A stretch of DNA of 64,000 nucleotides from Minisyncoccota bacterium (GCA_041667145.1 JBAYFP010000001.1:17958-81957); one strand, 5' to 3'. Positions 10,417 through 54,611 are shown, counted from the stretch's first letter. The notes: generated by a model not told the origin, from the letters alone. Translations and numbers: made by a program.

Positions 10417-10561
10417 ATGTATTTAATTAATGAAAGAACTTTAATTATCTTAACAGAAAATGAGTAAAAAACAATAGAGTAGATTTATTATTGAATTTAA
10501 AGTATAATATGAATTATATTATTAATAATCAAAATCATAACCGTTTAAGGCGGTAAATTAT

Positions 10562-10687
10562 ATGGCAAAAAGAAGTACAACCCTTGGTCCAAAAAAGAAA
10601 TCACGACGTTCACATAAGACAAAGAAAAGATTAGAAATTAAAAGGCTTATGCTAGCTAAAAAGGCTACTAAAAGAAAACATAAGTAA
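10562..10687 (+). CDS. small highly basic protein (41 aa), ribosomal-protein-like
   Basis: MAKRSTTLGPKKKSRRSHKTKKRLEIKRLMLAKKATKRKHK; AAGGCGG SD upstream; the LAKKATKRKHK tail loosely resembles bL35. Confidence 0.3.
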   Translation: MAKRSTTLGPKKKSRRSHKTKKRLEIKRLMLAKKATKRKHK

Positions 10688-10689
10688 AT

Positions 10690-11136: not shown

Positions 11137-11169
11137 AGTCGTTTTTATTAGTTTAATTTAGTAAATTTT

Positions 11170-11844: not shown

Positions 11845-11849
11845 ATCAT

Positions 11850-11965
11850 AAAAAGTGAAGAACGAATATTTTTGCCGGTACGGATTTTTTGAAGCTTAAA
11901 AAATCCTGAAGTTTTCGCGCCGTCGCGCTCAAAACCCCTTAAAAACATTGTTCTTCACTTTTTAT
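11850..11965. repeat. structured repeat element copy 1: conserved 71-nt core inside a locus-specific long inverted repeat
   Basis: core 11876-11946 CGGTACGGATTTTTTGAAGCTTAAAAAATCCTGAA..AAACCCCTTAAAAAC shared with 27798-27869; flanks AAAAAGTGAAGAAC / GTTCTTCACTTTTT pair. Confidence 0.7.
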
Positions 11966-12135
11966 TTTTCACAAAACTTGTCGTAGGCGTACTTATTAGA
12001 AAACATTGCGCAGGAGCTTAGAAAATAAAGGAGGTATCCCGGACTATTATTTTCTTGAGTGACGAGCATAGCAATCCGCCAGCTGGCGGATATGCGTGTT
12101 TTATAATAAGTATGCCAAGTAAAAAGATTTGTGAT

Positions 12136-12621
12136 TTATAGGAAAAGTTTTTGAATTTTTTCCCAAGGGATAGCGACGAGCATCGTTCCCAAGACTACCA
12201 AAAAAAGACCGATACCTGTTTGCAAAGTGACGCCTTCTGTCAAAACGACGACTGCAAGTATTGCTGTAAAGACTATGGAAAGTTTATCAATGACTGTCAC
12301 AGCGACAGTCGGTCCTACTGATAATGCTTGATAAAAGAAAATCCAAGACAAAGCTCCACCGAGCCCAGAGAGAATCACAAAAATCCATTGTTTTGTAGAA
12401 AGTGATGATATTGCCGTTACTGTGAGTTTTCCAAATGATAATGCAGCGATAGACACAATGATGGCCATTATGATGCCTCGAATCGCTGTCAATAAATTTG
12501 CGTCAACCCCTTTAAGTCCTAATTTAGCAAAAATAGTTCCCATGCTTGCCATAATTGCACCCAACAATGCGTATATTATATACATGGGTTTTATTATATC
12601 AAACACATTGAAATAAAGCAT
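12136..12621 (-). CDS. EamA/DMT-superfamily small transporter (4-TM)
   Basis: hydrophobic 4-helix protein with EamA-like pattern; true start probably the internal Met at 12585. Confidence 0.5.
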   Translation of the reverse strand: MLYFNVFDIIKPMYIIYALLGAIMASMGTIFAKLGLKGVDANLLTAIRGIIMAIIVSIAALSFGKLTVTAISSLSTKQWIFVILSGLGGALSWIFFYQALSVGPTVAVTVIDKLSIVFTAILAVVVLTEGVTLQTGIGLFLVVLGTMLVAIPWEKIQKLFL

Positions 12622-12641
12622 TTTAGGTGTAATATATATGT

Positions 12642-14402: not shown

Positions 14403-14405
14403 ATA

Positions 14406-14460
14406 CCCAGACGTTGGACATCTGGGGATTATCCATAGTTCCAGATGTCCAACATCTGGG
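14406..14460 (+). other. pair of GC-rich hairpins (inverted copies of a 21-nt unit) between the Cys-rich paralogs
   Basis: CCCAGACGTTGGACATCTGGG (14406-14426) and CCAGATGTCCAACATCTGG (14441-14459), each self-complementary. Confidence 0.5.
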
Positions 14461-14471
14461 TGAAGAAAATC

Positions 14472-16238
14472 ATGGAGTATAAAAATGAAAATAAAATATG
14501 TCAAAACTGTAAACAAGATTTTACAATAGAGCCAGAAGATTTCAATTTTTATGAAAAAATAAAGGTACCTTCACCGACGTTTTGTCCACTTTGTAGGGCA
14601 CAGAGAAGATTTGCTTTTAGAAATGAAAAAAAATTTTTTCGTACAAAAAGCGCATTTTCTAATAAGGACATTTTTTCTTTATTACCCAAAGAAAGTCAAA
14701 GAAAAATTGTGACCGAAGAAGAGTGGCATGGAGATACATGGGACGCGATGGAATATGCTAGTGAAATAGATTTTTCAAAACCATTTTTGAAACAAATTTT
14801 AGATTTAGAAAAACTAATACCCATTTATAATCTAAATTGTCAATTTATGGTAAATAGTCAGTATTCAGGGAATGCGACAGCCCTTAGAAATTGTTATCTT
14901 TGTTTTAATTCTAACCATTCTGAAGATTCTATGTATGGGAATGCAATCGATAGCTCAAAGGATTGTGTAGATAATTCACATGTAAACCATTCTGAAAGAT
15001 GTTATGAATGTTTTTGGTTAGAAAATTGTTATCAATGTTATTTTTCGATAATATGTAAAGATTCTTTTAATCTATATTTTTGTAAGAATTGCGTAGGATC
15101 TTCAAATTGTTTTGGGTGTATGAATTTAAGTAAATCATCTTTCTGTATTTTTAATAAACAATATACAAAAGAAGAATATGAAATTGAAATAGAAAAAATG
15201 AAATTGAACACAATTTCAGGAATTTCAAAAGCTAGAGAAAAAGCACGTATATTCTGGTTAACTAAACCAGTAAAAAATCATCAGGGTTTGAAGAATTTGA
15301 ATTCAACAGGTTCTTATGTGACAAATTGTAAAAACGTAAATGATAGTTATTTAATTAGGGAGAGTGAAAATATGCGTTATTGTCAGTATATGCAGGTTTC
15401 AGGTAACAAGGATTGTTATGATACCTCTATTTGGGGAGAACACATGGAGTTGGATTATGAGACTTGTCTTTCTGGTGAAAATTCTTACAATTTAAAATTC
15501 TGCTTAAATTGTTGGCCAGCTTGTCGGAATAATGAATATTGTATTAATCTTTTTAGTACGACGGATTGTTTTGGTTGTGTTGGTTTGAAAAAGAAACAGT
15601 ATTGTATCTTAAATAAACAATATACAAAAGAAGAATACGAAATTTTGGTAGAAAAAATTAAGAACCATATGTATGAAATGCCATATGTTGATTCACAAGG
15701 TCTTGTTTATAAATATGGGGAGTTTTTCCCAATAGAATTTTCAGCATATGGATACAACAATTCGATTGCTTTTCAACATTTCCCGATTACGAAAGATGAG
15801 GCAGAAAAAAGGGGATATTTATGGATTGAAGTTCCTCATGGAGAATATACTATTACGAAAAAAGTTTCGGATCTCCCAGATTCGATTGATGATGTTGATG
15901 ATAATTTTTTAAGGGAAGTTGTAGAATGTGAAAATTGTAAAAATGCTTTTCGTGTCTTAGAGGATGAATTAAATTTTTTACAAAAAGAGAAACTTCCTTT
16001 ACCGACGATGTGTCATGATTGTAGACATAAAAGAAGGATAAGTGATAGATTGGAAATAAAATTATATGAAAGATCTTGTATGTGCAAGGGGGACTTTGAT
16101 GAAACTGGTGTTTATAAAAATACTGTAAAACATATACATAGTGATGAACCTTGCGGTGAAATATTTAAAACTGGATATAATCCTGATTCAAAAGAAATAG
16201 TATATTGTGAAAAATGTTATCAGCAGGAGGTATATTAA
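14472..16238 (+). CDS. cysteine-rich protein, paralog 2 (tandem duplicate of 12642-14402)
   Basis: roughly two-thirds identical to paralog 1 along full length; start moved to the Met aligned with paralog 1 (the ORF-track start 14445 overlaps the hairpin). Confidence 0.6.
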   Translation: MEYKNENKICQNCKQDFTIEPEDFNFYEKIKVPSPTFCPLCRAQRRFAFRNEKKFFRTKSAFSNKDIFSLLPKESQRKIVTEEEWHGDTWDAMEYASEIDFSKPFLKQILDLEKLIPIYNLNCQFMVNSQYSGNATALRNCYLCFNSNHSEDSMYGNAIDSSKDCVDNSHVNHSERCYECFWLENCYQCYFSIICKDSFNLYFCKNCVGSSNCFGCMNLSKSSFCIFNKQYTKEEYEIEIEKMKLNTISGISKAREKARIFWLTKPVKNHQGLKNLNSTGSYVTNCKNVNDSYLIRESENMRYCQYMQVSGNKDCYDTSIWGEHMELDYETCLSGENSYNLKFCLNCWPACRNNEYCINLFSTTDCFGCVGLKKKQYCILNKQYTKEEYEILVEKIKNHMYEMPYVDSQGLVYKYGEFFPIEFSAYGYNNSIAFQHFPITKDEAEKRGYLWIEVPHGEYTITKKVSDLPDSIDDVDDNFLREVVECENCKNAFRVLEDELNFLQKEKLPLPTMCHDCRHKRRISDRLEIKLYERSCMCKGDFDETGVYKNTVKHIHSDEPCGEIFKTGYNPDSKEIVYCEKCYQQEVY

Positions 16239-16875: not shown

Positions 16876-17991
16876 ATGGTAAAAATACTAAAGAAACAGG
16901 GGAAAATAGTCAAAGTCAAAAAACAAAACAAAAAAACTGTTTCACTTAAAACTCGTAAAAAAGGCAAAAAAATAATTAAAATAGCGAAACTTAAAAGATT
17001 TTCGCATAATCCAATTATTGAGCCTAGCCCATATCCTTGGGAATCCAAAGCTACATTTAATCCAACTGCCTTTTTAGTGGATGGAAAAATTCATCTTATT
17101 TATCGAGCAATCGGTGATGATGATGTATCAGTTTTAGGATATGCTTCTAGTTTAGATGGTTCTAAAATAAAAGAAAGGTTTGCATATTCTATTTATAATA
17201 AATTTGGAAAATTTGTAAAATCTGGAGAGCCTATAAACTATATTTCAGGAGGGGGGTGGAATGGTGGTTGTGAAGATCCACGTGTTACTTTGATAGATAA
17301 TGTAGTTTATATGATTTATACAGCTTTTGATGGTTGGGGATCTTTACGAATGGCTTTAACTTCTATCAAACTAGATGATTTTAAAAAAAAGAAATGGAAC
17401 TGGGAAAAACCAATTTTAATTTCTCCTCCTGGTGAAATTCATAAAAATTGGGTTTTATTTCCAGAAAAAATAAATGGTAAATTTGCGATTTTGCATAGTA
17501 TCTCTCCTAAAGTTTTAATAGATTATGTGAAAAATTTTGATGAATTTGATGGTACTAAATTTATAAAAAGTTATCACAGTAGCACTCCTTCTTGGGGAAA
17601 TTCATGGGATAATATAGTGAGAGGCGTAGGCCCAACGCCAATAAAAATCAAAATAGGTTGGCTTGTTTTATATCATGCCATGGATAGAAACGATCCCAAC
17701 AGATATAAATTGGGGGCTATGATTTTAGACCTCAAGGATCCAACAAAAGTTTTGTATCGTTCTCCTTGTCCAATATTAGAGCCAGATGAAGATTATGAGA
17801 ATGAAGGATTTAAAGCTGGTGTCATATATTCCTGTGGTGCAGTAGTGAAAGACGGACAGCTTTTTGTATACTATGGTGGGGCTGATAGTGTAGTTTGTGT
17901 AGCTTCTATAAAACTATCAGATTTGATAAATAATCTTGTGAAAAATAAAAATATTAAATTAGAAAAAAATAAAAAATTTGAACTTAATTAA
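16876..17991 (+). CDS. glycoside hydrolase family 130 (beta-mannoside phosphorylase-like, DUF377)
   Basis: GCEDPRV, YTAFDG, YYGGAD hallmark motifs. Confidence 0.7.
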   Translation: MVKILKKQGKIVKVKKQNKKTVSLKTRKKGKKIIKIAKLKRFSHNPIIEPSPYPWESKATFNPTAFLVDGKIHLIYRAIGDDDVSVLGYASSLDGSKIKERFAYSIYNKFGKFVKSGEPINYISGGGWNGGCEDPRVTLIDNVVYMIYTAFDGWGSLRMALTSIKLDDFKKKKWNWEKPILISPPGEIHKNWVLFPEKINGKFAILHSISPKVLIDYVKNFDEFDGTKFIKSYHSSTPSWGNSWDNIVRGVGPTPIKIKIGWLVLYHAMDRNDPNRYKLGAMILDLKDPTKVLYRSPCPILEPDEDYENEGFKAGVIYSCGAVVKDGQLFVYYGGADSVVCVASIKLSDLINNLVKNKNIKLEKNKKFELN

Positions 17992-17997
17992 AATTAT

Positions 17998-19929
17998 ATG
18001 TTTGTTGTAAAAAAATCAGAACACAATCCTATACTTGTTCCCAATGAAGATCATTATTGGGAAGAATTTGCGAGTTTTAATCTTTGTCCGGTTAGACATA
18101 ATAAATCGATTTATGGACTTTACAGAGCCATCTCTGCAGTCGATATTTTACAAAATCCTCGTCAAAGATCTATCATAGGGATTACTCAGAGTAAAGATGG
18201 AATACATTTTAAAAATCGTGTGCCGTTTATTGTTCCTAAAGAAGAGTGGGATCAATTTGGTTGTGAAGATCCGCGGGTGACATATTTTGAAGGTGTTTTT
18301 TACACTTTTTATACGGCGCTTTCAGAGTATCCTTTCAACGCAAAAGGAATCAAGGTGGCCGTCGCAATATCTCGAGATTTAAAGAAGATTGACGAAAGAC
18401 ATTTAGTGACACCTTTTAACGCTAAAGCCATGACTCTCTTTCCAGAACGTATAAATGGAAAGATTGTTGTTGTTTTTTCTTACCACACTGATTCTCCTCC
18501 GACAAAAATAGCATTTGCGATGTTGGATAAGATAGAAGATTTGTGGTCGCAAACATTTTGGGAAAAATGGGAAAATAAAGTTGATGATTATACAATTGAT
18601 TTGAAACGTACACAGTATGATCATATCGAAGTCGGAGCTCCACCACTTAAAACAAAATACGGCTGGCTTTTTATTTATTCGCATATTCAAAATTATTTTC
18701 AATCACCTAATAATTTAGACAGAATTTTCGGTATTGAAGCGGTGTTGCTTGATTTAAAAGATCCAAGAAAGATAATTGCTAGAACTTCTGGACCGATGAT
18801 CGTTCCAGAAGAGTCTTATGAACTTTCAGGATATGTTCCAGATATAGTTTTCCCGACTGGCGCACTAATAGAAAAAGATACTCTTACGATATATTATGGT
18901 GCAGCTGATACTACGGTTTGCTCTGCAAAGGTTTGTTTGTCTGATCTTATTTCAAACATGCTTCCTAAGTTTAGAGAGGGCTCTCGTTTCAAGCGTTCTC
19001 TTAAAAATCCTATTATTGTTCCAATAAAAGAAAATAAATGGGAAGAGCAATCTACATTTAATCCCGCGTCAATATTACTTAATGGAAAGATACATATAGT
19101 GTATCGTGCAATGTCGCAGGACAATACATCTACACTTGGATATGCAATGACAAAGAATGGTGTTGATGTGATAGAACGTTTATCTTTACCCATCTATGTT
19201 CCTCGTGAAGATTTTGAAAATAAAAAAGTCAGTAATGGTAATTCTGGTTGTGAAGATCCGAGACTAACAAAGATTGGTAAGAATATTTATTTGTGTTATA
19301 CAGCTTTTGATAGTATTGGCCCTCCTAGGGTAGCTATCTCATCTATTACGGAAAAAGATTTTATTTCTCATAATTGGAGATGGGAAAAACCATTTTTAAT
19401 AACGCCACAAGGAATGGATGACAAAGATGCTTGTCTTTTTCCTAATAAATTTAAATTAGGTTATTTTATTTTGCATCGTTTAGACAATGAAATTTGTGGT
19501 GATTATTTAAACACTTTAGACTTTAAACATGAAGCTGTAAAAAAATGTATAAGAATTATTGGGCCTCGAGTAAACACATGGGACAGTGCTAAAGTAGGTA
19601 TCTCTGCTCCACCGATTAAAACAAAATATGGCTGGCTTTTGCTCTATCATGGAGTATCCAAAAGTCATAGTACTTATCGCATTGGGTGTGTTTTACTTGA
19701 TCTTAAAGATCCTGGCATTGTGCTTGCACGTAGTACTGAACCAATTTTTGAACCTGAAGAACAGTATGAAAAAATTGGTGTAGTTAATAATGTTGTATTT
19801 CCATGTGGAATGATAGTAAAAAATAAATTACTTTATATTTATTATGGAGGAGGAGATCGTGTGGTGGGGGTAGCCACGATGAAGCTTGATGTCATTTTGA
19901 AGGTACTTTTACATGGTACAAAATTATGA
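17998..19929 (+). CDS. tandem double GH130 domain protein
   Basis: two full repeats each with GCEDPR(V/L), YTA(L/F), YYG(A/G)(A/G)D motifs; 643 aa. Confidence 0.7.
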   Translation: MFVVKKSEHNPILVPNEDHYWEEFASFNLCPVRHNKSIYGLYRAISAVDILQNPRQRSIIGITQSKDGIHFKNRVPFIVPKEEWDQFGCEDPRVTYFEGVFYTFYTALSEYPFNAKGIKVAVAISRDLKKIDERHLVTPFNAKAMTLFPERINGKIVVVFSYHTDSPPTKIAFAMLDKIEDLWSQTFWEKWENKVDDYTIDLKRTQYDHIEVGAPPLKTKYGWLFIYSHIQNYFQSPNNLDRIFGIEAVLLDLKDPRKIIARTSGPMIVPEESYELSGYVPDIVFPTGALIEKDTLTIYYGAADTTVCSAKVCLSDLISNMLPKFREGSRFKRSLKNPIIVPIKENKWEEQSTFNPASILLNGKIHIVYRAMSQDNTSTLGYAMTKNGVDVIERLSLPIYVPREDFENKKVSNGNSGCEDPRLTKIGKNIYLCYTAFDSIGPPRVAISSITEKDFISHNWRWEKPFLITPQGMDDKDACLFPNKFKLGYFILHRLDNEICGDYLNTLDFKHEAVKKCIRIIGPRVNTWDSAKVGISAPPIKTKYGWLLLYHGVSKSHSTYRIGCVLLDLKDPGIVLARSTEPIFEPEEQYEKIGVVNNVVFPCGMIVKNKLLYIYYGGGDRVVGVATMKLDVILKVLLHGTKL

Positions 19930-32592: not shown

Positions 32593-32642
32593 GTTTTTGT
32601 GATTGACTGAAGAAATTTATGTAGGTATACTTAAAGATATAA

Positions 32643-33995
32643 ATGAACTTCTTGGGTAGAAAAAAAGAGGGTAGGAAGCTGTCTGGGAATATTTTATTTT
32701 TCTTGATTTTTTTTGTTTTTATTTTTGGGTTAGTGTTTTTCTCTGTTGTAGAGGCAGATTTTACAAGTACTAATTTTAAGCTCGAAAATCCAATTAATAT
32801 AATTAGCGGAGAACAATCAACATCACCGAGTTTTAAATATCTATCTACTACTTCTCAGTTAGTGCAAGGCCAGAGTACTAGTACTAATTTTACTCAAAAC
32901 GCAGGTTTTTTATATTTTCCAATAGCTACCTCACCTGTCTTATCTGCAACAGCCGGAGATGCACAGGTAGTTTTAAATTGGACTTCTGCTATAGGAATTT
33001 TAGCTAACATAACAAGTTATGAAGTGGGAATAAGTACTAGCTCGGGTGGAACATATACGTATACTTCAGTTGGAAATGTTCTGACTGATACGAAAACATC
33101 TCTTACAAACGGGACTCCATATTATTTTAAAATTCGTTCTTTTACTGCAGGACTTTTGTTAAGTGAATCTGCTATTGTGAGTGCGACACCTGTAGCTACA
33201 ATTATTCCTCCTCCAGGTGGCGGAGGCGGTGGAGGTGGAGGTGGAGTCCCACCACCAGCTCAAACGGGAGTAATTTTTTCTGGTAGAGCGTATCCATTAA
33301 GTAAAGTTAGTTTTCTAAAAGATGGACAACTAGCGCTTTCAACTATTGCTGGTCCGGATAGTAATTTTACTGGAAGTTTGACTAATCTTTCAGCAGGTAA
33401 TTATAACTTTTCTGTATATGGTGAAGATAAAAATGGTTTACGTTCAACTCCATTTAGTTTCCAGGTATTTGTGACATCAGGAGCGACTACAAACATTAGT
33501 GGGATATTTATTGCTCCGACGATTGCTGTAGATAAAAGTGAAGTAAAAAAAGGAGATAATATAGCTATCTTTGGACAAAGCGCTCCTTCATCAGAAATTG
33601 TCATCAGTATAAATTCTGCACAAGAATTTTTTAATAGTGCAGCTAGTGATAATAATGGTATATACTTACACAATTTTGATACATCTGTTCTCGAGCTTGG
33701 TAATCACTCCACAAAATCTAAAGCTTTAAAAAATGGTGAGATCAGTTCTTTTAGTAATATAGTAGGTTTTATTGTTGGAACAAAAAATATACTTGCAAAA
33801 GCACCAGAAAAAAGTGATAAATGTGATTTGAATGAAGATGGGCGTTGTAATCTTGTAGATTTTTCTATTGCAGCATTTTGGTATAAAAAACCTCTAAGTG
33901 AAGAATTCAAATTGAGAGAAAAGAAACATTTAAATGGAGACGGGAAAGTCGATTTGGTTGATTTTAGTATAATGGCCTTTTATTGGACAGGGTAA
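32643..33995 (+). CDS. secreted/anchored protein with fibronectin type III domain, Gly/Pro linker and C-terminal dockerin repeats
   Basis: FN3-like VVLNWTSA..YEVGISTSSGG..YYFKIRSF; PPPGGGGGGGGGGVPPP; dockerin pair DLNEDGRCNLVDFSI / LNGDGKVDLVDFSIM. Confidence 0.55.
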   Translation: MNFLGRKKEGRKLSGNILFFLIFFVFIFGLVFFSVVEADFTSTNFKLENPINIISGEQSTSPSFKYLSTTSQLVQGQSTSTNFTQNAGFLYFPIATSPVLSATAGDAQVVLNWTSAIGILANITSYEVGISTSSGGTYTYTSVGNVLTDTKTSLTNGTPYYFKIRSFTAGLLLSESAIVSATPVATIIPPPGGGGGGGGGGVPPPAQTGVIFSGRAYPLSKVSFLKDGQLALSTIAGPDSNFTGSLTNLSAGNYNFSVYGEDKNGLRSTPFSFQVFVTSGATTNISGIFIAPTIAVDKSEVKKGDNIAIFGQSAPSSEIVISINSAQEFFNSAASDNNGIYLHNFDTSVLELGNHSTKSKALKNGEISSFSNIVGFIVGTKNILAKAPEKSDKCDLNEDGRCNLVDFSIAAFWYKKPLSEEFKLREKKHLNGDGKVDLVDFSIMAFYWTG

Positions 33996-34011
33996 TATTA
34001 TAAAAATTATT

Positions 34012-34887
34012 ATGAAAAAATTTAGTCTAGTTTTATTTTTAATATTTTTTTTACCATTAGTATCTTTTGCTGCTAATATTTCTTTTGATTCAAATAAAGA
34101 TACCTTTTCTCAAGGTGAAGAATTTTTAGTGCAAGTTTTGTTAGACACAAAAGATGTGTCAGTGAATGCAGTAGAAGGAACTATCACATTTTCAGCTGAA
34201 TTTTTAGAACTAAAAGAGGTCAGAGATGGAAATTCGACTATTAATTTTTGGATAGAAAAACCTAATAATAAAAATGGAAATATTTCTTTTTCTGGTATCA
34301 CCACTGGTGGTTTTTCGGGGAGTAAAATGTTTTTATTTGGAATGGTATTCAAAACGAAAAAAGATGGAAACAGTCAAATGAATTTTAATAATGTAAGAAT
34401 TTTAGAGAATGATGGTATAGGTACAAAAATATCTACAAAAGAAATTCCTTTTAATTTTTCTATATCAAAAGATTTAAGTGGAAATAAAGTGGAAGATCTA
34501 ACCCTAAATGATAATGAAATGCCAGAAGATTTCACGCCATTCATAGGGAATGATTCTACTTTGTTTGGTGGGAAATATTTTATTGTATTTAGTACTGTAG
34601 ATAAAAGATCTGGCATAGACCATTATGAGGTACGAGAAAGTCCTTGGTATTTATTTGGATTTTTTGGAGGAAAATATGTAGTTACAGACAGCCCATATCT
34701 TTTGAGAGATCAAACACTTAAGGATACAATATATGTTAAAGCAATAGACAAAGCTAATAATGAGAGAATAGTAAAGATCGGAGCTCAAAACAGGCTAGCT
34801 CTATTGGAACAATGTTTAATTGTTGGTATACTTCTAAGCATATGTATTTTCTTATTCAAAAAATATGGACCAAATTTATTACGCTAA
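34012..34887 (+). CDS. cohesin-domain protein (secreted)
   Basis: signal peptide; cohesin-like beta-sandwich pattern GEEFLVQVLLDTKDVSVNAVEGTITFSAEFLELKEV. Confidence 0.45.
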   Translation: MKKFSLVLFLIFFLPLVSFAANISFDSNKDTFSQGEEFLVQVLLDTKDVSVNAVEGTITFSAEFLELKEVRDGNSTINFWIEKPNNKNGNISFSGITTGGFSGSKMFLFGMVFKTKKDGNSQMNFNNVRILENDGIGTKISTKEIPFNFSISKDLSGNKVEDLTLNDNEMPEDFTPFIGNDSTLFGGKYFIVFSTVDKRSGIDHYEVRESPWYLFGFFGGKYVVTDSPYLLRDQTLKDTIYVKAIDKANNERIVKIGAQNRLALLEQCLIVGILLSICIFLFKKYGPNLLR

Positions 34888-36001
34888 GAAAAAAATAATC
34901 AAAAAGCTTTTAATCTTAGCAATATTTTTGGGAATATTTGTTTTTTCCCCGTTTTTTGCAGAAGCTGCGACTCTATCTTTGAGTCCTTCGACTGGTATTT
35001 TTGAAACGGGTGAAAGAGTGGCTGTCAAAGTATTGGTGACATCAAACAATGTTCCTTTTAATGCAGTTTCGGGGATACTTTCTTTTCCATCTATTTTTTC
35101 TGTAGAATCTGTTTCGAAAACAAATTCAGCTCTTAACTTTTGGGTGACAGAGCCGACTATCAGTGGAGGGTCAGTAAAATTTGAAGGTATCGCTTTAGGT
35201 GGTTTTACTGGTTCTACAGGTAATGTCGTTACAATAAATCTTCGTGCGACAAAAGTAGGTGAAGGACAGGTATCTTTTAAATCTGGACAAATACTAGCTA
35301 ACGATGGAGACGGTACAGATATTACAGGTAATCTAATAGGTGCAAATTATTCTATAAAAGAAGCGACACAAAAAGCTCCACAGCCTAAACCAGAACCTAT
35401 ACCAACGCCTGAACCAGAACCAGTAGCCCCAGAAATAATCCAACCAGCTCCTTCTCTTAAAGCTCCAGAGATTATGCTTGGTGCTAAATATGGTTCACCA
35501 GCTATCATCGGAACATCTGAATATCCTGAAGCTCAAGTTTTAATGACATTCATTGCTGAGGATGGAGTAAAAGTATTCATACTAGGTGATGCAGATGTAG
35601 AAGGTAGCTTTAATATGCTGGTTCCAAATTCGTTGAAACATGGTTTATATACTGTGACAGCTGTGATGATAAAGACAGATAAGACAAATAGTCAAACTTC
35701 AAATGAAATAGTTATAAAAGTTGGTAATATTTTTTCTGATATTGGCTATGAGATATATTGGCTCATTTTGATCCTTATCCTTTTGATTTTGTATCTCGTA
35801 GCACGTATTATTTTCCATTTTAAAGACAAAAGTATAAATAAAAACTTAAAGAAAGAATTACATGAAGCTGAAGATATAATTCATAAGTCTTTTGATATTC
35901 TTCGTGAGGATGAGGTAGAGCATAAGAGTGTATCTGAGATAAAGAAAGATATTAATGAAGCGGAAAAAATAATAACTAAGGAAATTAAAGATATTGAATA
36001 G
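34865..36001 (+). CDS. membrane-anchored cohesin-domain scaffold-like protein with Pro-rich linker
   Basis: signal peptide, cohesin-like domain (GERVAVKVLVTSNNVPFNAVSGILSFPSIFSVESV), PQPKPEPIPTPEPEP linker, C-terminal TM + charged tail. Confidence 0.45.
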   Translation: MDQIYYAKKKIIKKLLILAIFLGIFVFSPFFAEAATLSLSPSTGIFETGERVAVKVLVTSNNVPFNAVSGILSFPSIFSVESVSKTNSALNFWVTEPTISGGSVKFEGIALGGFTGSTGNVVTINLRATKVGEGQVSFKSGQILANDGDGTDITGNLIGANYSIKEATQKAPQPKPEPIPTPEPEPVAPEIIQPAPSLKAPEIMLGAKYGSPAIIGTSEYPEAQVLMTFIAEDGVKVFILGDADVEGSFNMLVPNSLKHGLYTVTAVMIKTDKTNSQTSNEIVIKVGNIFSDIGYEIYWLILILILLILYLVARIIFHFKDKSINKNLKKELHEAEDIIHKSFDILREDEVEHKSVSEIKKDINEAEKIITKEIKDIE

Positions 36002-47450: not shown

Positions 47451-48404
47451 ATGAAAATAGCATTTTTTTATAAGTCTGAGGAAGTTCGAGAACTTTTAGA
47501 AGATTCTTTTCCTGGCAATGAAGTGTCTTTTTTTAACGAAAAATTAAGTGAGAGTAATGTTGATAAAATAAAAGAATTTGAGATTATTTCAGTATTTATA
47601 GATTCAGAAGTTAATAAGAATATTATTGACAATTTGCCAAACCTAAAATATATTACCACTCGATCGACAGGTTATGATCATATCGATTGTAAGTATGCAG
47701 AGAGTAAGGGTATAAAAGTTTCAAATGTTCCAGTTTATGGTTCAAGTACAGTAGCTGAATTTGCTTTTGCTCTTTTGTTAAATCTTTCTAGAAAAATTAG
47801 TGAAGCAGGTAAACAATTAAAAGAAGGTGGTGATTTTGAAACATCTGAGAAATGTGAAGGTTTTGATCTTGATGGAAAAACTATAGGAGTTATTGGTACA
47901 GGTAAAATTGGTAAAAATATAATTCGTATCGCTAAAGCTTTCAATATGAAAGTATTAGCTTATGATTTATATCCAGATGTTAATTTCGCAAGAGAAAATG
48001 GATTTGAATATAAAGATTTTGAAGAGATTCTTTCTGTGTCAGATGTAGTTACTTTGCATGCACCTTATACAAAAGAAAATCATCATCTTATAAACAAAGA
48101 AAATATTTTAAAAATGAAAAAAGGCGTTTACATTATAAACACTGCTCGTGGTGAACTTGTAGATAATGATGCATTACTTTTAGGTATCAATGAGGGCATT
48201 GTCGGGGGTGTCGGATTAGATGTTTTGGAAGGGGAACGTAACATTAAAAAGGGTGACAAAATTTCTCTTTTAGATAAACCTAATGTAATTATTACTCCTC
48301 ATGTAGCTTTTTATTCTAAAGAAGCGATGATGAGAATTATGCAAACGACTGTGGAAAACATAAAAGGATTCATATCTGGAAATTTACAAAATCTGGTTAG
48401 ATAA
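47451..48404 (+). CDS. D-isomer-specific 2-hydroxyacid dehydrogenase (glycerate/hydroxypyruvate reductase-like)
   Basis: GKTIGVIGTGKIGKNI Rossmann motif, catalytic R/E/H pattern. Confidence 0.75.
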   Translation: MKIAFFYKSEEVRELLEDSFPGNEVSFFNEKLSESNVDKIKEFEIISVFIDSEVNKNIIDNLPNLKYITTRSTGYDHIDCKYAESKGIKVSNVPVYGSSTVAEFAFALLLNLSRKISEAGKQLKEGGDFETSEKCEGFDLDGKTIGVIGTGKIGKNIIRIAKAFNMKVLAYDLYPDVNFARENGFEYKDFEEILSVSDVVTLHAPYTKENHHLINKENILKMKKGVYIINTARGELVDNDALLLGINEGIVGGVGLDVLEGERNIKKGDKISLLDKPNVIITPHVAFYSKEAMMRIMQTTVENIKGFISGNLQNLVR

Positions 48405-48407
48405 AAA

Positions 48408-48480
48408 ACTTGTCCCGTACTAAATTTTTGAGTAAAACAAATGGTCAATATTAATAACAATTTAAAATTTTAGTACTGGG
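48408..48480 (+). promoter_or_regulatory. GTACT-family long hairpin abutting the glycerate kinase start codon
   Basis: arms identical to 19943-20013 (CTTGTCCCGTACTAAATTTTTGA .. AAAATTTTAGTACTGGG-ATG), loop differs. Confidence 0.55.
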
Positions 48481-49776
48481 ATGAATGAAAGACTTATCAA
48501 AAATTTTGACGATTTAGCAACGACAGAAAATCGCAAGATAGCTTTAGAAATAATAGAAGCAGGGCTTGGTGCTATAAATACGAGCAAAGTGATTAGTTCT
48601 CTGGTTTCTCTTACTGGTGATGTTTTATCAGTTGCAGGTAAAAAATTTGATCTTACTAAGTATAAAAATATAAAAGTTGTTGGTTTTGGTAAATCTTCTT
48701 GTGAGGGAGCTTTAGCAATAGAGAAAATTTTGGGAGCTAGGATAACTAGCGGAGCTGTGATTGGACTTCAGAAGGCTGATTGTAAATATATTGAAACTTT
48801 TGCTGGCACACACCCAAAGCCATCCGAGGAAAACATTAAAGCAGGGGAAAAGATATATGAGATTATAAATGGTTCAAAAGAGGATGACCTTATTATTGTG
48901 CTTGTCTCTGGTGGGGGTTCTTCACTCCTTTGTTACCCTGAAAGTGAATATAAAGAAGGAGCTAGACTCTATGATGCTTTTCTAAAATCTGGCAAAACGA
49001 TAACAGAAATAAACACAGTTAGGAAACATCTCTCATTGTTTAAAGGTGGAGGATTAGCAAAAATAGCATATCCTGCGACTATCGTTGGGCTTATTTTTTC
49101 AGATATTCCTGGAAATGATTTTAAAAATGTTGCTTCTGGTGCGACATATAAAGATGACACTACTATAGAAGATGCTCAAAAAATTATTATAGAAAATAAC
49201 TTAGGGGAATTTAATTTAATTGAAACACCAAAAGAAGATAAATATTTTGAAAATGTTTTTAATTTTATTCTTGTTTCAGATAAAACTGCGGTAGATGCGA
49301 TGGCTCAAAAGTCGAGAGAGTTTAATTTGGGAGTAAATATTCTTTCTACTGAATTATACGATGAGGTAGATGAAGCGCTCGGAAAAATATTTAAAGATAA
49401 AAGTGATAGTTCTGTCGTTTTGGCTGCTGGTGAGCCTAGAATTGTTGTAAAAAAAGAAGCGGGTAAAGGTGGGAGAAGTCTTCATATGGCTCTTTCTGTA
49501 GTTGCCAAAAAACTTATAAACAAAGAAGATTTTATGAATTCTGTTTTTATATCCTTTGCCTCTGACGGTATGGACAATAGTGATGCCGCGGGAGCTATTG
49601 TCGATAAAAATACAATAGAGAAAATAGAGAAATTAAATTTAAATGTTGATGATGCTTTAGAGCGTTTTGATTCCTACCCAGTTTTCGAAAAATCAGGTGA
49701 TATGATCATGACAGGTCCTACAGGTGCAAATGTTTCAGATTTGATGTTACTTTTGACGAAAAAAAATAATTTATGA
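48481..49776 (+). CDS. glycerate 2-kinase (MOFRL family)
   Basis: MOFRL-type N- and C-terminal domains (..VVGFGKSS.., ..LVSGGGSSLL..). Confidence 0.6.
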   Translation: MNERLIKNFDDLATTENRKIALEIIEAGLGAINTSKVISSLVSLTGDVLSVAGKKFDLTKYKNIKVVGFGKSSCEGALAIEKILGARITSGAVIGLQKADCKYIETFAGTHPKPSEENIKAGEKIYEIINGSKEDDLIIVLVSGGGSSLLCYPESEYKEGARLYDAFLKSGKTITEINTVRKHLSLFKGGGLAKIAYPATIVGLIFSDIPGNDFKNVASGATYKDDTTIEDAQKIIIENNLGEFNLIETPKEDKYFENVFNFILVSDKTAVDAMAQKSREFNLGVNILSTELYDEVDEALGKIFKDKSDSSVVLAAGEPRIVVKKEAGKGGRSLHMALSVVAKKLINKEDFMNSVFISFASDGMDNSDAAGAIVDKNTIEKIEKLNLNVDDALERFDSYPVFEKSGDMIMTGPTGANVSDLMLLLTKKNNL

Positions 49777-50270
49777 AAAATAATGAAGATAACGTTGCAT
49801 ATATAGATGGAGCAAATCTACACAAGGGAATGAAGGCTCTAGATTGGGAATTTGATTACGGGCGTTTTAGAGTTTGGTTAAAAGAAAAATATCGTATTCA
49901 ACAAGCTTATTTATTTTTAGGATTTATTCCAAAATATAAAGATCTTTATACAAAATTACAAGAACAAGGGTACACTCTTGTTTTTAAAGAAGTTATTTTT
50001 GATGGTGATGGAAAAGCAAAAGGAAATTGTGATGCAGATATCGTTGTTCACGCCATGCAAGATGCCTATGAGAATAAATTTAATAAAGTGGTTTTGATTT
50101 CTAGTGATGGTGACTATGCTCCATTAGTTAAATTCCTGAAAGAAAAAAATAAAATTGAATTTATTTTATCTCCATATGATACAAAAAAGTGTTCGATTTT
50201 ATTAAAAAGAACTGGAGTAAAAATATCTTATATTTCTGACCAGAAAAATATTCTTAAAAAGAGTACTTAA
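49773..50270 (+). CDS. NYN-domain (LabA-like) protein
   Basis: VAYIDGANL, CDADIVVHAM, LISSDGDYAPLV. Confidence 0.6.
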   Translation: MKNNEDNVAYIDGANLHKGMKALDWEFDYGRFRVWLKEKYRIQQAYLFLGFIPKYKDLYTKLQEQGYTLVFKEVIFDGDGKAKGNCDADIVVHAMQDAYENKFNKVVLISSDGDYAPLVKFLKEKNKIEFILSPYDTKKCSILLKRTGVKISYISDQKNILKKST

Positions 50271-50290
50271 AAAGAAAAAGCCCCCGATGT

Positions 50291-50327
50291 GGACTAACCA
50301 CATAAGGGTCTTTTTCGTAAGGATGTG
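50291..50327 (+). terminator. rho-independent terminator
   Basis: CCCgATGTGG..CCACATaaGGG stem then TCTTTTTCG. Confidence 0.5.
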
Positions 50328-50403
50328 TATATTATATCAAAATGTCAGACAAAAAGTCAATAGTTATCCACAGGTAGTAAAATATAGTATAATCAATTAA
50401 ATT

Positions 50404-51717
50404 ATGGATAAAAAGATTACAAAAATTGTGGGAGAAGAGATTAAGGATTCGAGAGGGAACCCGACTATTAAAGTGACTGTTTGGGTAGGTGATGAATCAG
50501 GCAGTTTTGCTGTGCCGTCTGGAGCCTCTACGGGGGCTCATGAAGCTCATGAATTAAGAGACCCCGAACCAGAGCAAGCTCGGTACGGGGCAGGTCCAGA
50601 TGGCAAGGGTGGTATGAAGAAAGCTATTTGGAACGTAGAGAATATAATTGCTCCGGCATTGATTGGTCAAAATGTTTTAAATCAAGAAGTAATAGATAGA
50701 ATGATGATTAAATTAGATGGCACTCCAAATAAAGACAATCTCGGAGGGAATGCTCTTATTGGTGTCTCTATCGCTTGTGCTAAAGTAGCAGCAAAAGTTT
50801 TTAGTTTAGAAACTTTTGAGTATTTGCGAACTTTAGCAAAAATAAAACCTTCAAGAAAAATTCCTTATTTGTATATGAATTTAATAAATGGGGGGAAGCA
50901 TGCGAAAAATGAGTTGGCCTTCCAAGAATATCACATAGTACCTAGCACTGAAGATGTAAGCGAAGCAATGGAAATGGGTATCAAAATACAAAATAGTTTG
51001 AAAGAAATTATTAGTAAAGACCTTGGGGGAGAATCAATAGTATTTGGTGATGAGGGTGGTTTTGCTCCTAAAATAAGCGACGTTAAAAAACCTTTAGAAT
51101 ATCTAAGTAAAGCAATAAAACAAAATAATCTTGTAGACAAAGTACGTTTAGCATTAGACGTCGCTAGTTCTTCATTTTTTGAAAATCCTGCCCGCAATGC
51201 TTCAGGCATAGCTGATGCAGGCGGGGGGAAATATAAAATTGATAGTAAAGAAATAACGAAAGAAGAGTTGATAAGTGTTTATAATTCTTTAATTAGGGAA
51301 TTTGATTTACTTTCAATAGAAGATCCGTTTGATGAGGAAGATTTTTCCAGTTTTAGAAAATTAAGAGAAAATAATAAAAAATTATTTAGACCTAGGTCTA
51401 GTCTTTTAGTGGTAGGGGATGACCTGACTGTCACAAATAAAATTTTATTGGAAAAAGCGATAGGAGAAAAGAGTATTAATGCAATGATAATTAAACCAAA
51501 TCAGATAGGTACTCTTACGGAAACTCTTGAAACGATGAAAAAAGCACGAGAGAATGATGTTGAGTTGATTATTAGCCACCGAAGCGGGGAAACGGAGGAT
51601 GATTTTATTGCTGACCTTGCCTATGCTTTTGGTTGTTTTGGATTAAAAGCTGGTTCTCCCCAAAAACCTGAAAGAATGGTGAAGTATAAAAGATTAATTA
51701 AAATTTCAGAAATGTAA
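50404..51717 (+). CDS. eno: enolase
   Basis: DSRGNPTIKV, VGDDLTVTN, SHRSGETED motifs; carries GTACT-family insertion. Confidence 0.9.
   Translation: MDKKITKIVGEEIKDSRGNPTIKVTVWVGDESGSFAVPSGASTGAHEAHELRDPEPEQARYGAGPDGKGGMKKAIWNVENIIAPALIGQNVLNQEVIDRMMIKLDGTPNKDNLGGNALIGVSIACAKVAAKVFSLETFEYLRTLAKIKPSRKIPYLYMNLINGGKHAKNELAFQEYHIVPSTEDVSEAMEMGIKIQNSLKEIISKDLGGESIVFGDEGGFAPKISDVKKPLEYLSKAIKQNNLVDKVRLALDVASSSFFENPARNASGIADAGGGKYKIDSKEITKEELISVYNSLIREFDLLSIEDPFDEEDFSSFRKLRENNKKLFRPRSSLLVVGDDLTVTNKILLEKAIGEKSINAMIIKPNQIGTLTETLETMKKARENDVELIISHRSGETEDDFIADLAYAFGCFGLKAGSPQKPERMVKYKRLIKISEM
50562..50594. repeat. GTACT-family element in frame inside eno
   Basis: CCCCGAACCAGAGCAAGCTCGGTACGGGGCAGG, same loop (AGAGCAA(A)GCTC) and right arm (GTACGGGGCAGG) as 44881-44916. 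Confidence 0.55.
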
Positions 51718-51879
51718 GAAGATTCAGAGTATCAAAAGATAAAAAGAAACATATTGAAAAATATGGGGAAATTGCAGATAATCCATATTTAATACGTCTG
51801 CCGTTTATTTTAGTATAAAATATGTTATACTTGAATCTGAATTAAAAATTCTTTTATTCAACTTATACAATGGTGAATT

Positions 51880-52071
51880 ATGTCAGAAACTGATATGATG
51901 TTTCTTCGTAATCCTGTTGTTTCAACGTTATTGATTTTTGTGATGCTTAGCTTAGGGGTTTATATCGTCATGGGGATCATAAACATAAATAGGCAATTAC
52001 GAAAAGGAATTCAGAAACGAAATGATCGTGCTGCAGAAGAAGTACTTTTAAGGAAGTCTAAAAAAAGATGA
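51880..52071 (+). CDS. small membrane protein
   Basis: 63 aa, one TM. Confidence 0.3.
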   Translation: MSETDMMFLRNPVVSTLLIFVMLSLGVYIVMGIININRQLRKGIQKRNDRAAEEVLLRKSKKR

Positions 52072-52199
52072 CTTCAGGGATTTTTAAAAAAATGGTAGAA
52101 CTGAAGTTTTACCATTTTTTATTTTTTAGAATAGCATAAATTATGCTATAATATTTGTATATATTTAATGGGTATTGATTATTATTAATTTAGTAATTT

Positions 52200-54611
52200 A
52201 TGACAGAAGAAAAAAATAATTTTGTAAAGTGGTATAGCGAAGTGGGTATTGCAGATGTTCCGTCAGTTGGAGGGAAAAATGCAGCATTAGGAGAAATGTA
52301 TTCAAATCTTGTGCCACTTGGAGTAAATATACCGGATGGTTTTGCTTTGACGGCAGATGCATATCGACATTTCTTTAAAGAAACAGGACTAGATGAAGAA
52401 ATAAAGAAAATCTTGGCTGATCTCGATACAAAAAATATTAAAAATCTTCAAATTCGTGGGAAAAAAGTTAGAGAGACTATTTTGAAGGCATCCTTACCAC
52501 AAGATTTGCAAGATGTTATTACAAAATCATATGCAGAGTTAGGTAGAAAATATGGGAAAGATAGTGATGTAGCTGTGCGTTCTTCTGCTACGGCCGAAGA
52601 TCTTCCAGGTGCTTCTTTTGCCGGACAACAGGAGACTTTTTTAAACGTTCACGGTATTGAAAATATTCTTATTGCCACTAAAAAATGTATAGCTTCACTT
52701 TTTACTGACCGAGCTATTTCTTATAGGGTAGATAAAGGTTTCTCACATTTTGATGCCGCTTTATCTGTCGGTGTTCAAATAATGGTTCGTTCCGACCTTT
52801 CTGCCTCTGGCGTTGCTTTTACTTTAGACACGGAGACAGGTTTTGATAAAGTTATTTTAATAAATGGTATTTATGGGCTTGGTGAATTCATCGTTCAAGG
52901 GAAAGTTATCCCAGATGAGTTTATAATCTTCAAGCCCACATTAGAAAGTGGTAAAAATCCGATCATTGGTAAAAATATTGGTAAGAAAAATATTAAACTT
53001 ATTTATGCGAAAGATGGTACGAAACAAGAAAAAGTTTCCTTACAAGAACAACAAAAATTTTGTATTACAGACGAAGAGGCAATAAAGCTCGGTAAATGGT
53101 GTTTGCAAATAGAAAAATATTTTTCTGAAAAACACAATCGCTATCAGCCGATGGATATCGAATGGGCAAAGGATGGAAAAACTGGCCAGCTTTTTATTGT
53201 ACAAGCTCGTCCTGAGACTGTTCGTTCTGGTGAAGATAGAAATATTTTAAAAGAATATCAATTACAAAAAGCAGGCAAAGTGTTGGTAAGTGGTATTGCT
53301 GTCGGTTCTAAGATTGGCAGTGGAAAAGTTCGTATCTTGCGCAGTGCTAAAAATATTTCTTCTTTCCAAAAAGGGGAAGTATTGGTGACAGAAATAACCG
53401 ACCCAGATTGGGAACCTATCATGAAGATAGCGAGCGCTATTGTGACGGATAAGGGCGGGCGTACATCTCATGCCGCTATCGTTTCTCGTGAGCTTGGTAT
53501 TCCTTGTATTGTAGGGTCAAATAATGCCACTAAGGCTCTTAAAAATGGTCAGGACGTGACTGTAGACGCTTCAGGAGGCCAAGTAGGCAATGTTTATGAA
53601 GGCATTATCCCATTTAAAATTATAGAACATCAGCTAGACAAAATACCAAAAATAGAGACAAAAATCATGGTAAATATCGGTTCTCCAGATGAAGCTTTTA
53701 AGAATTATCATCTTCCTACACAAGGTGTGGGTTTGGGGAGACTAGAATTTATTATTGCTTCACATATTCGTGTTCATCCAAATGTATTGATTAACTATAA
53801 AAAATTAAAAGAAGGCAAAAAAACTTCTGCAATAAATAAAGTTCTAAAAGAAGTTGAAAATCTTACTCCTCTTTATAAAGATAAAACACAATTTTATGTG
53901 GATGAGCTTGCGCGAGGTATAGCAAAGATTGGAGCCACGTTTTTCCCTAATAAAGTTATTATTCGTTTTTCTGATTTTAAAACAAATGAATATCGTACAT
54001 TGCTCGGTGGAGATATGTATGAACCACATGAGGAGAATCCAATGCTTGGTTGGCGTGGGGCATCTCGATATTACGATCCAAAATTTAAAGAGGCTTTTGG
54101 CCTCGAATGTGTCGCGATGAAACGCGTGCGAGAAGATATGGGCCTTACGAATGTCATACCTATGGTTCCGTTTTGTCGAACTCCTGAAGAGGGAAAACAA
54201 GTGATAGAAACAATGAAAGAATATGGTTTAGACAGAGAGAAAGATAAAGAACTTAAAGTTTATGTGATGTGTGAAATCCCTTCCAACATTCTTTTAGCCG
54301 ACGAATTCCTTGAAATTTTTGACGGCATGTCTATAGGATCTAACGATTTGACACAGCTTACCTTAGGACTTGATCGTGATTCAGGAATAGTTACACATAT
54401 AGCAAATGAGAACAACGCAGCAGTTAAGAAACTTGTAGCTCAAATTATTCATAAATGTAAAGAAAAAGGGAAGTATATAGGTATTTGTGGGCAGGCACCT
54501 TCAGATTATCCAGAATTTGCAAAGTTTTTAGTGAGTGAGGGAATAGAAAGTATGTCGCTCAACCCTGATACTGTTATTAAAATTATTATGGCTTTGAGTG
54601 AAAATAAATAA
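52200..54611 (+). CDS. ppsA: phosphoenolpyruvate synthase (pyruvate, water dikinase)
   Basis: N-terminal PPDK-N domain, GGRTSHAAIVSRELGIPCIVG phospho-His domain, C-terminal PEP-utilizing TIM barrel. Confidence 0.85.
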   Translation: MTEEKNNFVKWYSEVGIADVPSVGGKNAALGEMYSNLVPLGVNIPDGFALTADAYRHFFKETGLDEEIKKILADLDTKNIKNLQIRGKKVRETILKASLPQDLQDVITKSYAELGRKYGKDSDVAVRSSATAEDLPGASFAGQQETFLNVHGIENILIATKKCIASLFTDRAISYRVDKGFSHFDAALSVGVQIMVRSDLSASGVAFTLDTETGFDKVILINGIYGLGEFIVQGKVIPDEFIIFKPTLESGKNPIIGKNIGKKNIKLIYAKDGTKQEKVSLQEQQKFCITDEEAIKLGKWCLQIEKYFSEKHNRYQPMDIEWAKDGKTGQLFIVQARPETVRSGEDRNILKEYQLQKAGKVLVSGIAVGSKIGSGKVRILRSAKNISSFQKGEVLVTEITDPDWEPIMKIASAIVTDKGGRTSHAAIVSRELGIPCIVGSNNATKALKNGQDVTVDASGGQVGNVYEGIIPFKIIEHQLDKIPKIETKIMVNIGSPDEAFKNYHLPTQGVGLGRLEFIIASHIRVHPNVLINYKKLKEGKKTSAINKVLKEVENLTPLYKDKTQFYVDELARGIAKIGATFFPNKVIIRFSDFKTNEYRTLLGGDMYEPHEENPMLGWRGASRYYDPKFKEAFGLECVAMKRVREDMGLTNVIPMVPFCRTPEEGKQVIETMKEYGLDREKDKELKVYVMCEIPSNILLADEFLEIFDGMSIGSNDLTQLTLGLDRDSGIVTHIANENNAAVKKLVAQIIHKCKEKGKYIGICGQAPSDYPEFAKFLVSEGIESMSLNPDTVIKIIMALSENK

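Follow-up and report, generated by a model that had tools for sequence, protein, structure and literature searches.

A conserved three-gene operon of Patescibacteria encoding a dockerin protein and two cohesin proteins as a candidate non-cellulosomal surface-anchoring system

Introduction

A locus of three open reading frames (ORFs), here called g1, g2 and g3, at positions 32,643–36,001 on the plus strand of a 64,000-nucleotide stretch of DNA from a Minisyncoccota bacterium (GCA_041667145.1, JBAYFP010000001.1:17958-81957; this whole stretch is referred to as the window) raises the question of what a dockerin and two cohesins may hold together when the dockerin is attached to no enzyme. A reading made from the sequence alone (the original prediction) had placed a gene for a fibronectin type III (FN3)–dockerin protein there, followed by genes for a secreted cohesin and a membrane-anchored cohesin scaffold, and had described the set as a minimal cellulosome-like surface assembly. 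All three ORFs are present at this location. Both g2 and g3 already bear the NCBI label 'cohesin domain-containing protein', so that novelty lies in the conservation of the operon and in how it is built.

The use of cohesin–dockerin pairs outside cellulosomes is already established for Clostridium perfringens, Archaeoglobus fulgidus and the Ruminococcus bromii amylosome (PMC4611034). Cohesin and dockerin proteins of a candidate phyla radiation (CPR) bacterium have been detected in a groundwater metaproteome and were read as a cellulosome (10.1101/2021.08.21.457207); this detection is an expression precedent for such proteins in the CPR. An essential dockerin-domain envelope protein, SEML1_0315, has been described in the Saccharibacterium Southlakia epibionticum (Cell 2023; PMC10633639); it has 927 amino acids (aa), its gene has other neighbours, among which no cohesin genes are listed, and it was rejected as an instance of the operon considered here. 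No description of the three-gene operon, of a transmembrane (TM)-anchored cohesin pair or of a cargo with constant stalk and variable head was found in open-access full text. We propose that g1–g3 constitute a non-cellulosomal cohesin–dockerin surface-anchoring operon displaying an adhesin-like protein, and give this mechanism as a whole a probability of roughly 0.65.

Results

A two-repeat dockerin at the end of g1

The C-terminus of g1 consists of two EF-hand-type segments of ~22 residues with Asp or Asn at positions 1, 3, 5, 9 and 12, which is the architecture of a dockerin. In repeat 1 (aa 395–416) the Ca loop DLNEDGRCNLVD is followed by the helix FSIAAFWYKK, and in repeat 2 (aa 428–449) the loop HLNGDGKVDLVD is followed by the helix FSIMAFYWTG; the duplicated calcium-binding strings quoted in the original prediction were located at aa 395–409 and 429–443. 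Dockerin_1 (PF00404) is matched by 35 of 38 g1 relatives (best 4.4e-9). A profile built from the C-terminal 60 residues of the g1 family retrieved only dockerins from the PDB, with both repeats aligned to 2y3n_B (E 1.3e-7) and further matches to 5nrm_B (8e-5) and CelS (6e-4); the dockerins ranked after 2y3n_B are Acetivibrio cellulolyticus DocCel5, CelS and CelD. Judged by profile and residue pattern, g1 carries a genuine two-repeat dockerin.

Among 75 species copies the loop consensus reads D-L-N-x-D-x-x-V-N-L-V-D for loop 1 and x-L-N-G-D-G-K-V-D-L-V-D for loop 2, and hardly any variation is seen in the helices FSIAAYWYKR and FSIMAYYWTG. The loop positions are likewise near-invariant, with the exception of position 1 of loop 2 (Asp in 34 of 75). 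Positions 10/11 (Leu, Val) and 17/18 (Ala, Phe/Tyr), which we take to be the cohesin-recognition positions of type I dockerins, are identical in both repeats. Symmetric recognition residues mark those type I dockerins that bind in a dual mode, and the symmetry of the g1 repeats would fit such a mode.

Cysteines near Ca loop 1 were almost always found in pairs, and the 75 dockerins (loci L001–L082) display three alternative geometries: an upstream Cys paired with loop position 6 (n = 23), an upstream Cys paired with loop position 4 (n = 11), and a Cys just before D1 paired with loop position 8 (n = 7). Window g1 belongs to the last group, with Cys394 and Cys402 (window 33822–33848) as a likely disulfide. 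Another 32 dockerins have no such Cys and two have an unpaired one. The alternative pairs suggest, as far as residue positions can tell, interchangeable disulfide clasps.

Two paralogous cohesins on predicted membrane anchors

As originally predicted, g2 and g3 each start with a hydrophobic signal sequence and continue into a cohesin-like beta-sandwich, the latter seen in AlphaFold2 (AF2) models with mean predicted local distance difference test (pLDDT) scores of 90.2 for g2 and 81.5 for g3. At the family level, Pfam Cohesin (PF00963) is matched by 9 of 40 g2 relatives (best 3.2e-5) and by 3 of 40 g3 relatives (best 2.1e-6). A profile restricted to the cohesin domain matched 5m2o (Ruminococcus flavefaciens ScaB cohesin 3, E 6.9e-4) and 7urp (E 1.7e-3) in the PDB, and the g2 sequence by itself matches 7urp (E 0.008), which is the second cohesin of R. 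bromii Sca5; chain 7urp_A is labelled 'Ribonucleases G and E' in the sequence file. Full-length family profiles gave weak PDB matches (E 0.35 to 0.8), and domain-restricted profiles and fold searches were needed.

The Foldseek matches of both models are dominated at the top by solved cohesins, with or without bound dockerin. The first match, the cohesin+FN3 double module 2w1n, spans both extracellular domains of g2 (E 1.4e-11) and of g3 (4.8e-10); 2vo8 was matched with a TM-score of 0.81, and g3 matched cohesins with TM-scores of 0.62–0.77. In the models the domain forms a nine-stranded beta jelly-roll of ~140 residues that superposes on solved cohesins, the closest structural neighbours being cohesins from A. 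fulgidus and C. perfringens, both non-cellulosomal. The cohesins of g2 and g3 are paralogous (hhalign probability 99.8%, E 3.2e-29) and have the motifs NAV.G, S..NFW, F.G....GG and L.NDG.GT in common. Most of the invariant residues of the g2 cohesin are located, by the strand order of the model, in strands 3, 5, 6 and 8 and the adjoining loops. In the established cohesin topology it is the 8-3-6-5 sheet that binds the dockerin; mapped through strand order, most of the invariant g2 residues would lie on the predicted dockerin-binding sheet.

Beyond the cohesin, g2 continues through a short linker into a second domain with invariant residues D197, K198, G201, E209, D246 and N250. The original prediction had g2 as merely secreted, and this has to be revised: its C-terminal TM helix and basic tail (Table 1) make it a membrane-anchored protein. 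The Pro-rich linker, second domain, TM helix and charged tail ascribed to g3 are all present. The Ig-like domain of g3 is matched by the g1 Ig profile in some species (loci L030 and L070). Within the cytoplasmic tail of g3 there is an internal duplication of ~31 aa, KKELHEAEDIIHK / KKDINEAEKIITK (DNA repeat D2), and family searches returned no match for the tail. Cohesin anchors do not usually have a conserved portion inside the cell. The topology predicted for both proteins is single-pass, with the N-terminus outside and the C-terminus inside.

One gene order in many lineages

Homologues number more than 2,100 for g1 and hundreds each for g2 and g3. Their named sources are almost always Patescibacteria (Nomura-, Woese-, Doudna-, Uhr-, Taylor- and Pacebacteria, among others), and a few record titles that name other sources (Nitrospira, Gammaproteobacteria and many 'uncultured Saccharibacteria') seem to be errors of binning or labelling. 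Synteny was scanned in 80 loci, with one genome per GTDB species, by running domain hidden Markov models (HMMs) on six-frame ORFs. The loci include Wolfe-, Vogel-, Colwell-, Kaiser-, Azam-, Campbell-, Harrison-, Magasanik-, Uhr- and Doudnabacteria and 'Minisyncoccia', and the operon was also found in Candidatus (Ca.) Microsyncoccus archaeolyticus PMX.50 (locus L038). No expression data for the Ca. Microsyncoccus operon were found in the supplements of PMC10936435.

Immediately upstream of the g2 homologue there is a dockerin gene in 60 of the 61 loci with room for it, and the next gene downstream is of the g3 type in 72 of 73. The complete order of dockerin gene, g2 type and g3 type was found in 55 of the 57 loci with enough flank on both sides; of the two exceptions, one has an extra cohesin gene inserted (L034) and in the other g3 is missing or diverged (L022). 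Extra cohesin-TM paralogues occur in nine loci. Clustering of the flanking ORFs of all 80 loci revealed no further conserved neighbour: the next-best cluster is present in 13 loci only, and two apparent neighbour clusters turned out to be antisense shadow ORFs. The conserved unit is these three genes. In the window, the g1, g2 and g3 family profiles match these three ORFs only, and no other dockerin, cohesin or protein with the N-terminal module of g1 was found there. The window-unique profile matches and the order recurring in 55 of 57 loci of other species indicate that the set is more than a chance grouping, and the strict synteny and modular architecture together predict that the dockerin interacts with the cohesins, and may also point to the host-attachment role raised in the original prediction.

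The Nomurabacteria A3A95 locus (L001, 1–12706) has an upstream giant ORF of 2,848 aa, an IS200/IS605-type Y1 transposase and three TM proteins of ~130 aa. After its operon there are two extra cohesin-TM paralogues (451 and 460 aa), and its g1 homologue has no FN3 domain.

A constant stalk with variable heads

The only hydrophobic segment of g1 is aa 12–41, and the family alignment retains an A-x-A boundary before D at the predicted cleavage site. The head that follows is a conserved 57-aa module whose three repeats start at TSTNF (aa 41), TSPSF (aa 60) and TSTNF (aa 79) with the pattern [ST]S[ST][NS]F and which ends in GFLYFP; it has no family match in Pfam or NCBIfam. The FN3 domain and the G10 linker of the original prediction were both recovered, the linker as an exact run. 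The fn3 family is matched by 28 of 38 g1 family members and the FN3 region of PDB 9vsf_A aligns at E 2e-6, a Gly run of variable length occurs in nearly all members, and Big_6 is matched by 36 of 38. The Ig stalk and the dockerin are the best-conserved part of the family. No catalytic domain was detected in g1. Absent from the original prediction were the two Ig-like domains of g1 (~180 aa), its 57-aa module, and the second domain and TM helix of g2.

Across the family the constant part comprises the poly-Gly hinge, two Ig domains and the dockerin, and the part before the hinge varies. The three-repeat module with an FN3 domain, as in the window, forms the head in 26 loci. Other heads consist of the three-repeat module alone, of a Cys-rich type with 'CG..I.E.GE.CD' (also in Microsyncoccus), of a type with 'DNDGDG..DYP.DP.C', or of larger unclassified sequences. 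In ~70 related loci the operon-linked dockerin protein is a non-enzymatic Ig-stalk protein, and the sole exception is an unrelated cargo of 963 aa (L074, 4100–6988) whose C-terminal part is a poly-Gly run with the same dockerin. The gene for this protein, which is repetitive and possibly beta-helical, follows the g1 homologue and immediately precedes the cohesin pair.

When 1.84 billion cluster representatives were searched with a profile of the three-repeat module, 516 matches with several architectures were obtained. In all of the best 150 of these the module is N-terminal, at residues ~7–120 after a leader of signal-peptide length. The same dockerin forms the C-terminus in 97 of the best 150 module carriers, and several others end in a TM helix. 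Since a dockerin or a TM helix is found at the same end, the two appear interchangeable as tethers; by the same alternation, the job of the dockerin would be to tether the protein to the cell and the N-terminal head would be the exposed end. Some module proteins encoded near the operon in other species end in a strand '...Y..VITYVATANF', which we take to recall pilin-like subunits.

Features and surroundings of the locus

The features of the locus are listed in Table 1. A gap of 16 nucleotides (nt) separates g1 and g2, and the start of g3 lies 23 nt ahead of the stop of g2, an overlap that suggests coupled translation. The promoter-like site upstream of g1 is weak evidence because the total of such sites does not exceed the expectation from shuffling, and neither promoter nor terminator counts were above those of shuffled sequences. 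No RNA family was matched in an Rfam search. The DNA repeats found mirror the protein repeats and the paralogy, and nothing more.

Table 1 Features of the g1–g3 locus, in window coordinates
Feature	Position	Strand	Description
Upstream flank			RpiB-like, ribulose-phosphate-epimerase-like and HAD-like ORFs; housekeeping; names from reading the translations
Promoter-like site TTGACT-17-TATACT	32603..32631	+	Ends 12 nt before the g1 ATG; 10/12 matches, joint best in region
g1	32643-33995	+	450 aa; predicted secreted dockerin-bearing cargo; NCBI 'hypothetical protein WCS86_00280'
g1 signal peptide	32643..32756	+	aa 1-38; predicted cleavage between VEA and DF
g1 N-terminal head	32757..32927	+	aa 39-95; three 19-aa repeats; DNA repeat D11
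g1 FN3 domain	32928..33197	+	aa ~96-185; Pfam fn3 E 3.8e-4
g1 Gly10 hinge	33216..33245	+	aa 192-201, exactly G10
g1 stalk	33255..33797	+	aa ~205-385; two Ig-like domains, Big_6/Big_13 type
g1 dockerin	33819..33992	+	aa 393-450; two Ca loops, each with helix
g2	34012-34887	+	291 aa; predicted membrane-anchored single-cohesin protein
g2 cohesin domain	34072..34476	+	aa ~21-155
g2 second domain	34504..34785	+	aa ~165-258; Ig/FN3-like; motif DKxSGIDHYEV ... KAxDKxGNE
g2 C-terminal TM helix	34795..34869	+	aa ~262-286, then basic tail KKYGPNLLR
g3	34865-36001	+	378 aa; predicted membrane-anchored single-cohesin protein with cytoplasmic tail
g3 cohesin domain	34967..35362	+	aa ~35-166
g3 Pro-rich linker	35366..35458	+	aa 168-198; PxPEP-type 12-nt repeats (DNA repeat D4); low pLDDT
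g3 Ig-like domain	35459..35728	+	aa ~199-288; Big_13 type; strands 202-286
g3 TM helix	35747..35818	+	aa ~295-318
g3 cytoplasmic helical tail	35819..35998	+	aa 319-378; HKSFDILRED ... KKDINEAEKIITKEIKDIE; conserved, charged, 60 aa, two helices
Downstream flank			YchF-like GTPase, methyltransferase and LeuRS-like ORFs; housekeeping; names except methyltransferase from reading the translations

Elsewhere in the window, a large serine recombinase with Resolvase and Recombinase domains is encoded at 8441–10111. Two ORFs of 586 and 597 aa without a Pfam match (12642–14402 and 14445–16238) lie near it, and the G+C content falls to 0.27–0.30 between 4 and 10 kb; the region 8441–16238 may be an integrated element. 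Two tandem GH130 genes of the mannoside phosphorylase type follow at 16876–19929, the second of which has an N-terminal extension of ~350 aa without family match. The GH130 proteins match neither the dockerin profile nor the Ca-loop pattern. A block with a 2-hydroxyacid dehydrogenase, a MOFRL glycerate kinase-like gene, an enolase and a pyruvate phosphate dikinase occupies 47451–54611, ~11 kb downstream of the operon; the same dehydrogenase-to-dikinase block follows directly after the cohesin genes in Nomurabacteria L001 (12727–16873), a placement that implies wider synteny with L001 and an insertion of housekeeping genes.

Discussion

The domain identities, the membrane topology signals, the paralogy of the cohesins, the conservation of the operon and the variability of the head are observations, and from them we infer that the dockerin binds these cohesins, that it needs calcium to do so, that the assembly is exposed at the surface and that it functions in adhesion or recognition. 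In the mechanism proposed, all three proteins would be exported through Sec; g2 and g3 would lose their signal peptides and stay in the cytoplasmic membrane by their C-terminal TM helices, with the N-terminus outside and the basic tail inside. Each would hold a single cohesin off the membrane on an Ig-like spacer, that of g2 close to the membrane and that of g3 further out on a Pro-rich extender of ~30 aa. The g1 protein would be released from the membrane and then caught when its C-terminal dockerin binds, in the presence of Ca2+, the cohesin of g2, of g3 or of both. The product would be a stalk of two Ig domains with a poly-Gly hinge and an outward distal head, which in the window organism comprises the FN3 domain and the three-repeat module. 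The head would be the variable and probably ligand- or host-binding end, and hinge, stalk and dockerin a constant adaptor.

Several points weigh against this mechanism. Among the checks named in the original prediction were searches with Dockerin_1 and cohesin HMMs. For the dockerin, window g1 itself reaches 22.2 bits, 0.7 bit short of the gathering cut-off of 22.9, and the match holds for its relatives; for the cohesins, the absence of an HMM hit had been named, along with the lack of a predicted complementary interface, as a ground for rejection, and window g2 and g3 taken singly indeed match neither Pfam Cohesin nor any NCBIfam cohesin model, a result that the matches of their families overturn. 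Position 1 of loop 2 is His, not Asp, in window g1. The near-invariance of the dockerin across species would leave little signal for co-variation with the cohesins. Finally, the one apparent g1–g2 fusion (L073, 35–2179) was rejected as an assembly artefact, since a run of N (translated as X) that marks an assembly gap or mask extends across the gene junction, and it therefore provides no Rosetta-stone support.

The proteins might instead build an envelope or S-layer-type scaffold in which g1 is an abundant structural subunit and g2 and g3 are membrane stalks, for which the canopy-plus-stalk arrangement of archaeal SlaA/SlaB is an analogue. A near-universal and strictly ordered operon across many Patescibacteria lineages would fit a housekeeping role in the envelope, all three proteins are made up of Ig, FN3 and cohesin beta-sandwiches only, both anchors have C-terminal TM helices, and the translational coupling of g2 and g3 suggests a fixed stoichiometry. 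However, species differ in the distal head that g1 carries, and such swapping is unusual for a lattice subunit and typical of a recognition module, and the flexible Gly10 hinge speaks against a rigid lattice; we consider such a scaffold unlikely.

Placement of the three-repeat module directly after the signal peptide in the best 150 of the 516 cluster representatives, together with the possibly pilin-like C-terminal strand of some near-operon module proteins, would also be expected if the module inserted into or nucleated a polymer of module-bearing secreted proteins, with g1 as its base adaptor. Such a fibre anchor seems distinctly improbable to us: g1 is the only module protein encoded in the window, the module has no family assignment, and many species keep the operon yet have exchanged the module for unrelated heads.

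It could further be argued that the genes are adjacent without their products interacting, the EF-hand pair of g1 serving to stabilise the protein through calcium or to bind another partner and the cohesin folds of g2 and g3 binding other ligands such as glycans or host proteins. We give this little credence in view of the order kept in 55 of 57 loci without any other conserved neighbour, the extreme conservation of the dockerin helices, the conserved cohesin residues placed by the model on strands of the known binding sheet, and the unrelated L074 cargo that bears the same dockerin beside cohesin genes.

A minimal true cellulosome, in which the cohesins dock secreted carbohydrate-active enzymes for polysaccharide degradation, could draw on the genuine cohesin and dockerin modules, the two GH130 genes of the window and the published interpretation of the CPR metaproteome, but is very improbable, because g1, a protein without a catalytic domain, bears the sole dockerin of the 64-kb window, the GH130 proteins carry no dockerin, each anchor has a single cohesin with neither a carbohydrate-binding module (CBM; Pfam and fold search) nor a multi-cohesin scaffoldin present, no S-layer homology (SLH) or sortase anchor was found, and the operon-linked dockerin proteins of ~70 loci are non-enzymatic bar the unclassified L074 cargo. 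Of the original description as cellulosome-like, the docking principle stands and the enzyme cargo, scaffoldin and CBM that would make a cellulosome fall away. By its sequence features, g1–g3 would be a non-cellulosomal cohesin–dockerin system, with genuine modules outside any cellulosomal enzyme context.

The proposed surface-anchoring operon resembles the single-cohesin anchoring scaffoldins of cellulosomes (Clostridium thermocellum OlpA, OlpC and SdbA; R. flavefaciens ScaE), in which each cell-bound protein uses a single cohesin to capture a partner tagged with a dockerin, and the g1-family profile aligns with cellulosomal type I dockerins over both of its near-symmetric repeats. It differs from the cellulosomal systems in that g2 and g3 are anchored by a C-terminal TM helix instead of SLH domains or sortase, that the cargo is non-enzymatic and joined by no primary multi-cohesin scaffoldin or CBM, that two paralogous anchors stand side by side, one of them with a conserved cytoplasmic tail, and that the host is a small-genome Patescibacterium. 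The best Foldseek matches, the cohesin+FN3 module of C. perfringens GH84C NagJ and the GH33 cohesin (2w1n, 2vo8, 2jh2), likewise act outside cellulose degradation. Cohesin and dockerin modules of C. perfringens sit on secreted enzymes and assemble enzyme complexes, whereas the g2 and g3 cohesins are on dedicated membrane anchors and their partner has no enzyme. The non-cellulosomal cohesin of A. fulgidus (2xdh) is archaeal and belongs to a different protein context; it is not known to us to occur in a conserved three-gene operon or as a TM-anchored pair. The R. bromii amylosome (Sca5 cohesin 7urp; PMC4611034) also employs the cohesin–dockerin principle for a use other than cellulose, with dockerins on amylases, unlike the enzyme-free g1.

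These findings correct a tendency to take cohesin and dockerin matches in CPR genomes as evidence for cellulose degradation. The small, extremely conserved dockerin with its alternative disulfide clasps might also find use, together with the two cohesins, as an orthogonal affinity pair. Attachment and partner recognition in Patescibacteria are largely unknown outside the Saccharibacteria, in which type IV pili have been implicated, and an operon whose gene order is retained by nearly all Paceibacteria-type species examined offers a concrete candidate for a system that displays proteins at the surface or recognises hosts. Its presence in Ca. Microsyncoccus archaeolyticus, which grows in an enrichment culture on a methanogen, makes localisation work feasible. 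More tentatively, and we regard it as possible but doubtful, the operon may be a modular 'docking station' shared throughout Paceibacteria and their relatives among the Patescibacteria, in which two paralogous TM-anchored cohesins mount interchangeable dockerin-tagged heads that set host or surface recognition and the g3 tail couples the outside to the interior. If so, the docking station would be a principal attachment apparatus of these ultra-small bacteria, previously undescribed, and would provide a handle for host prediction.

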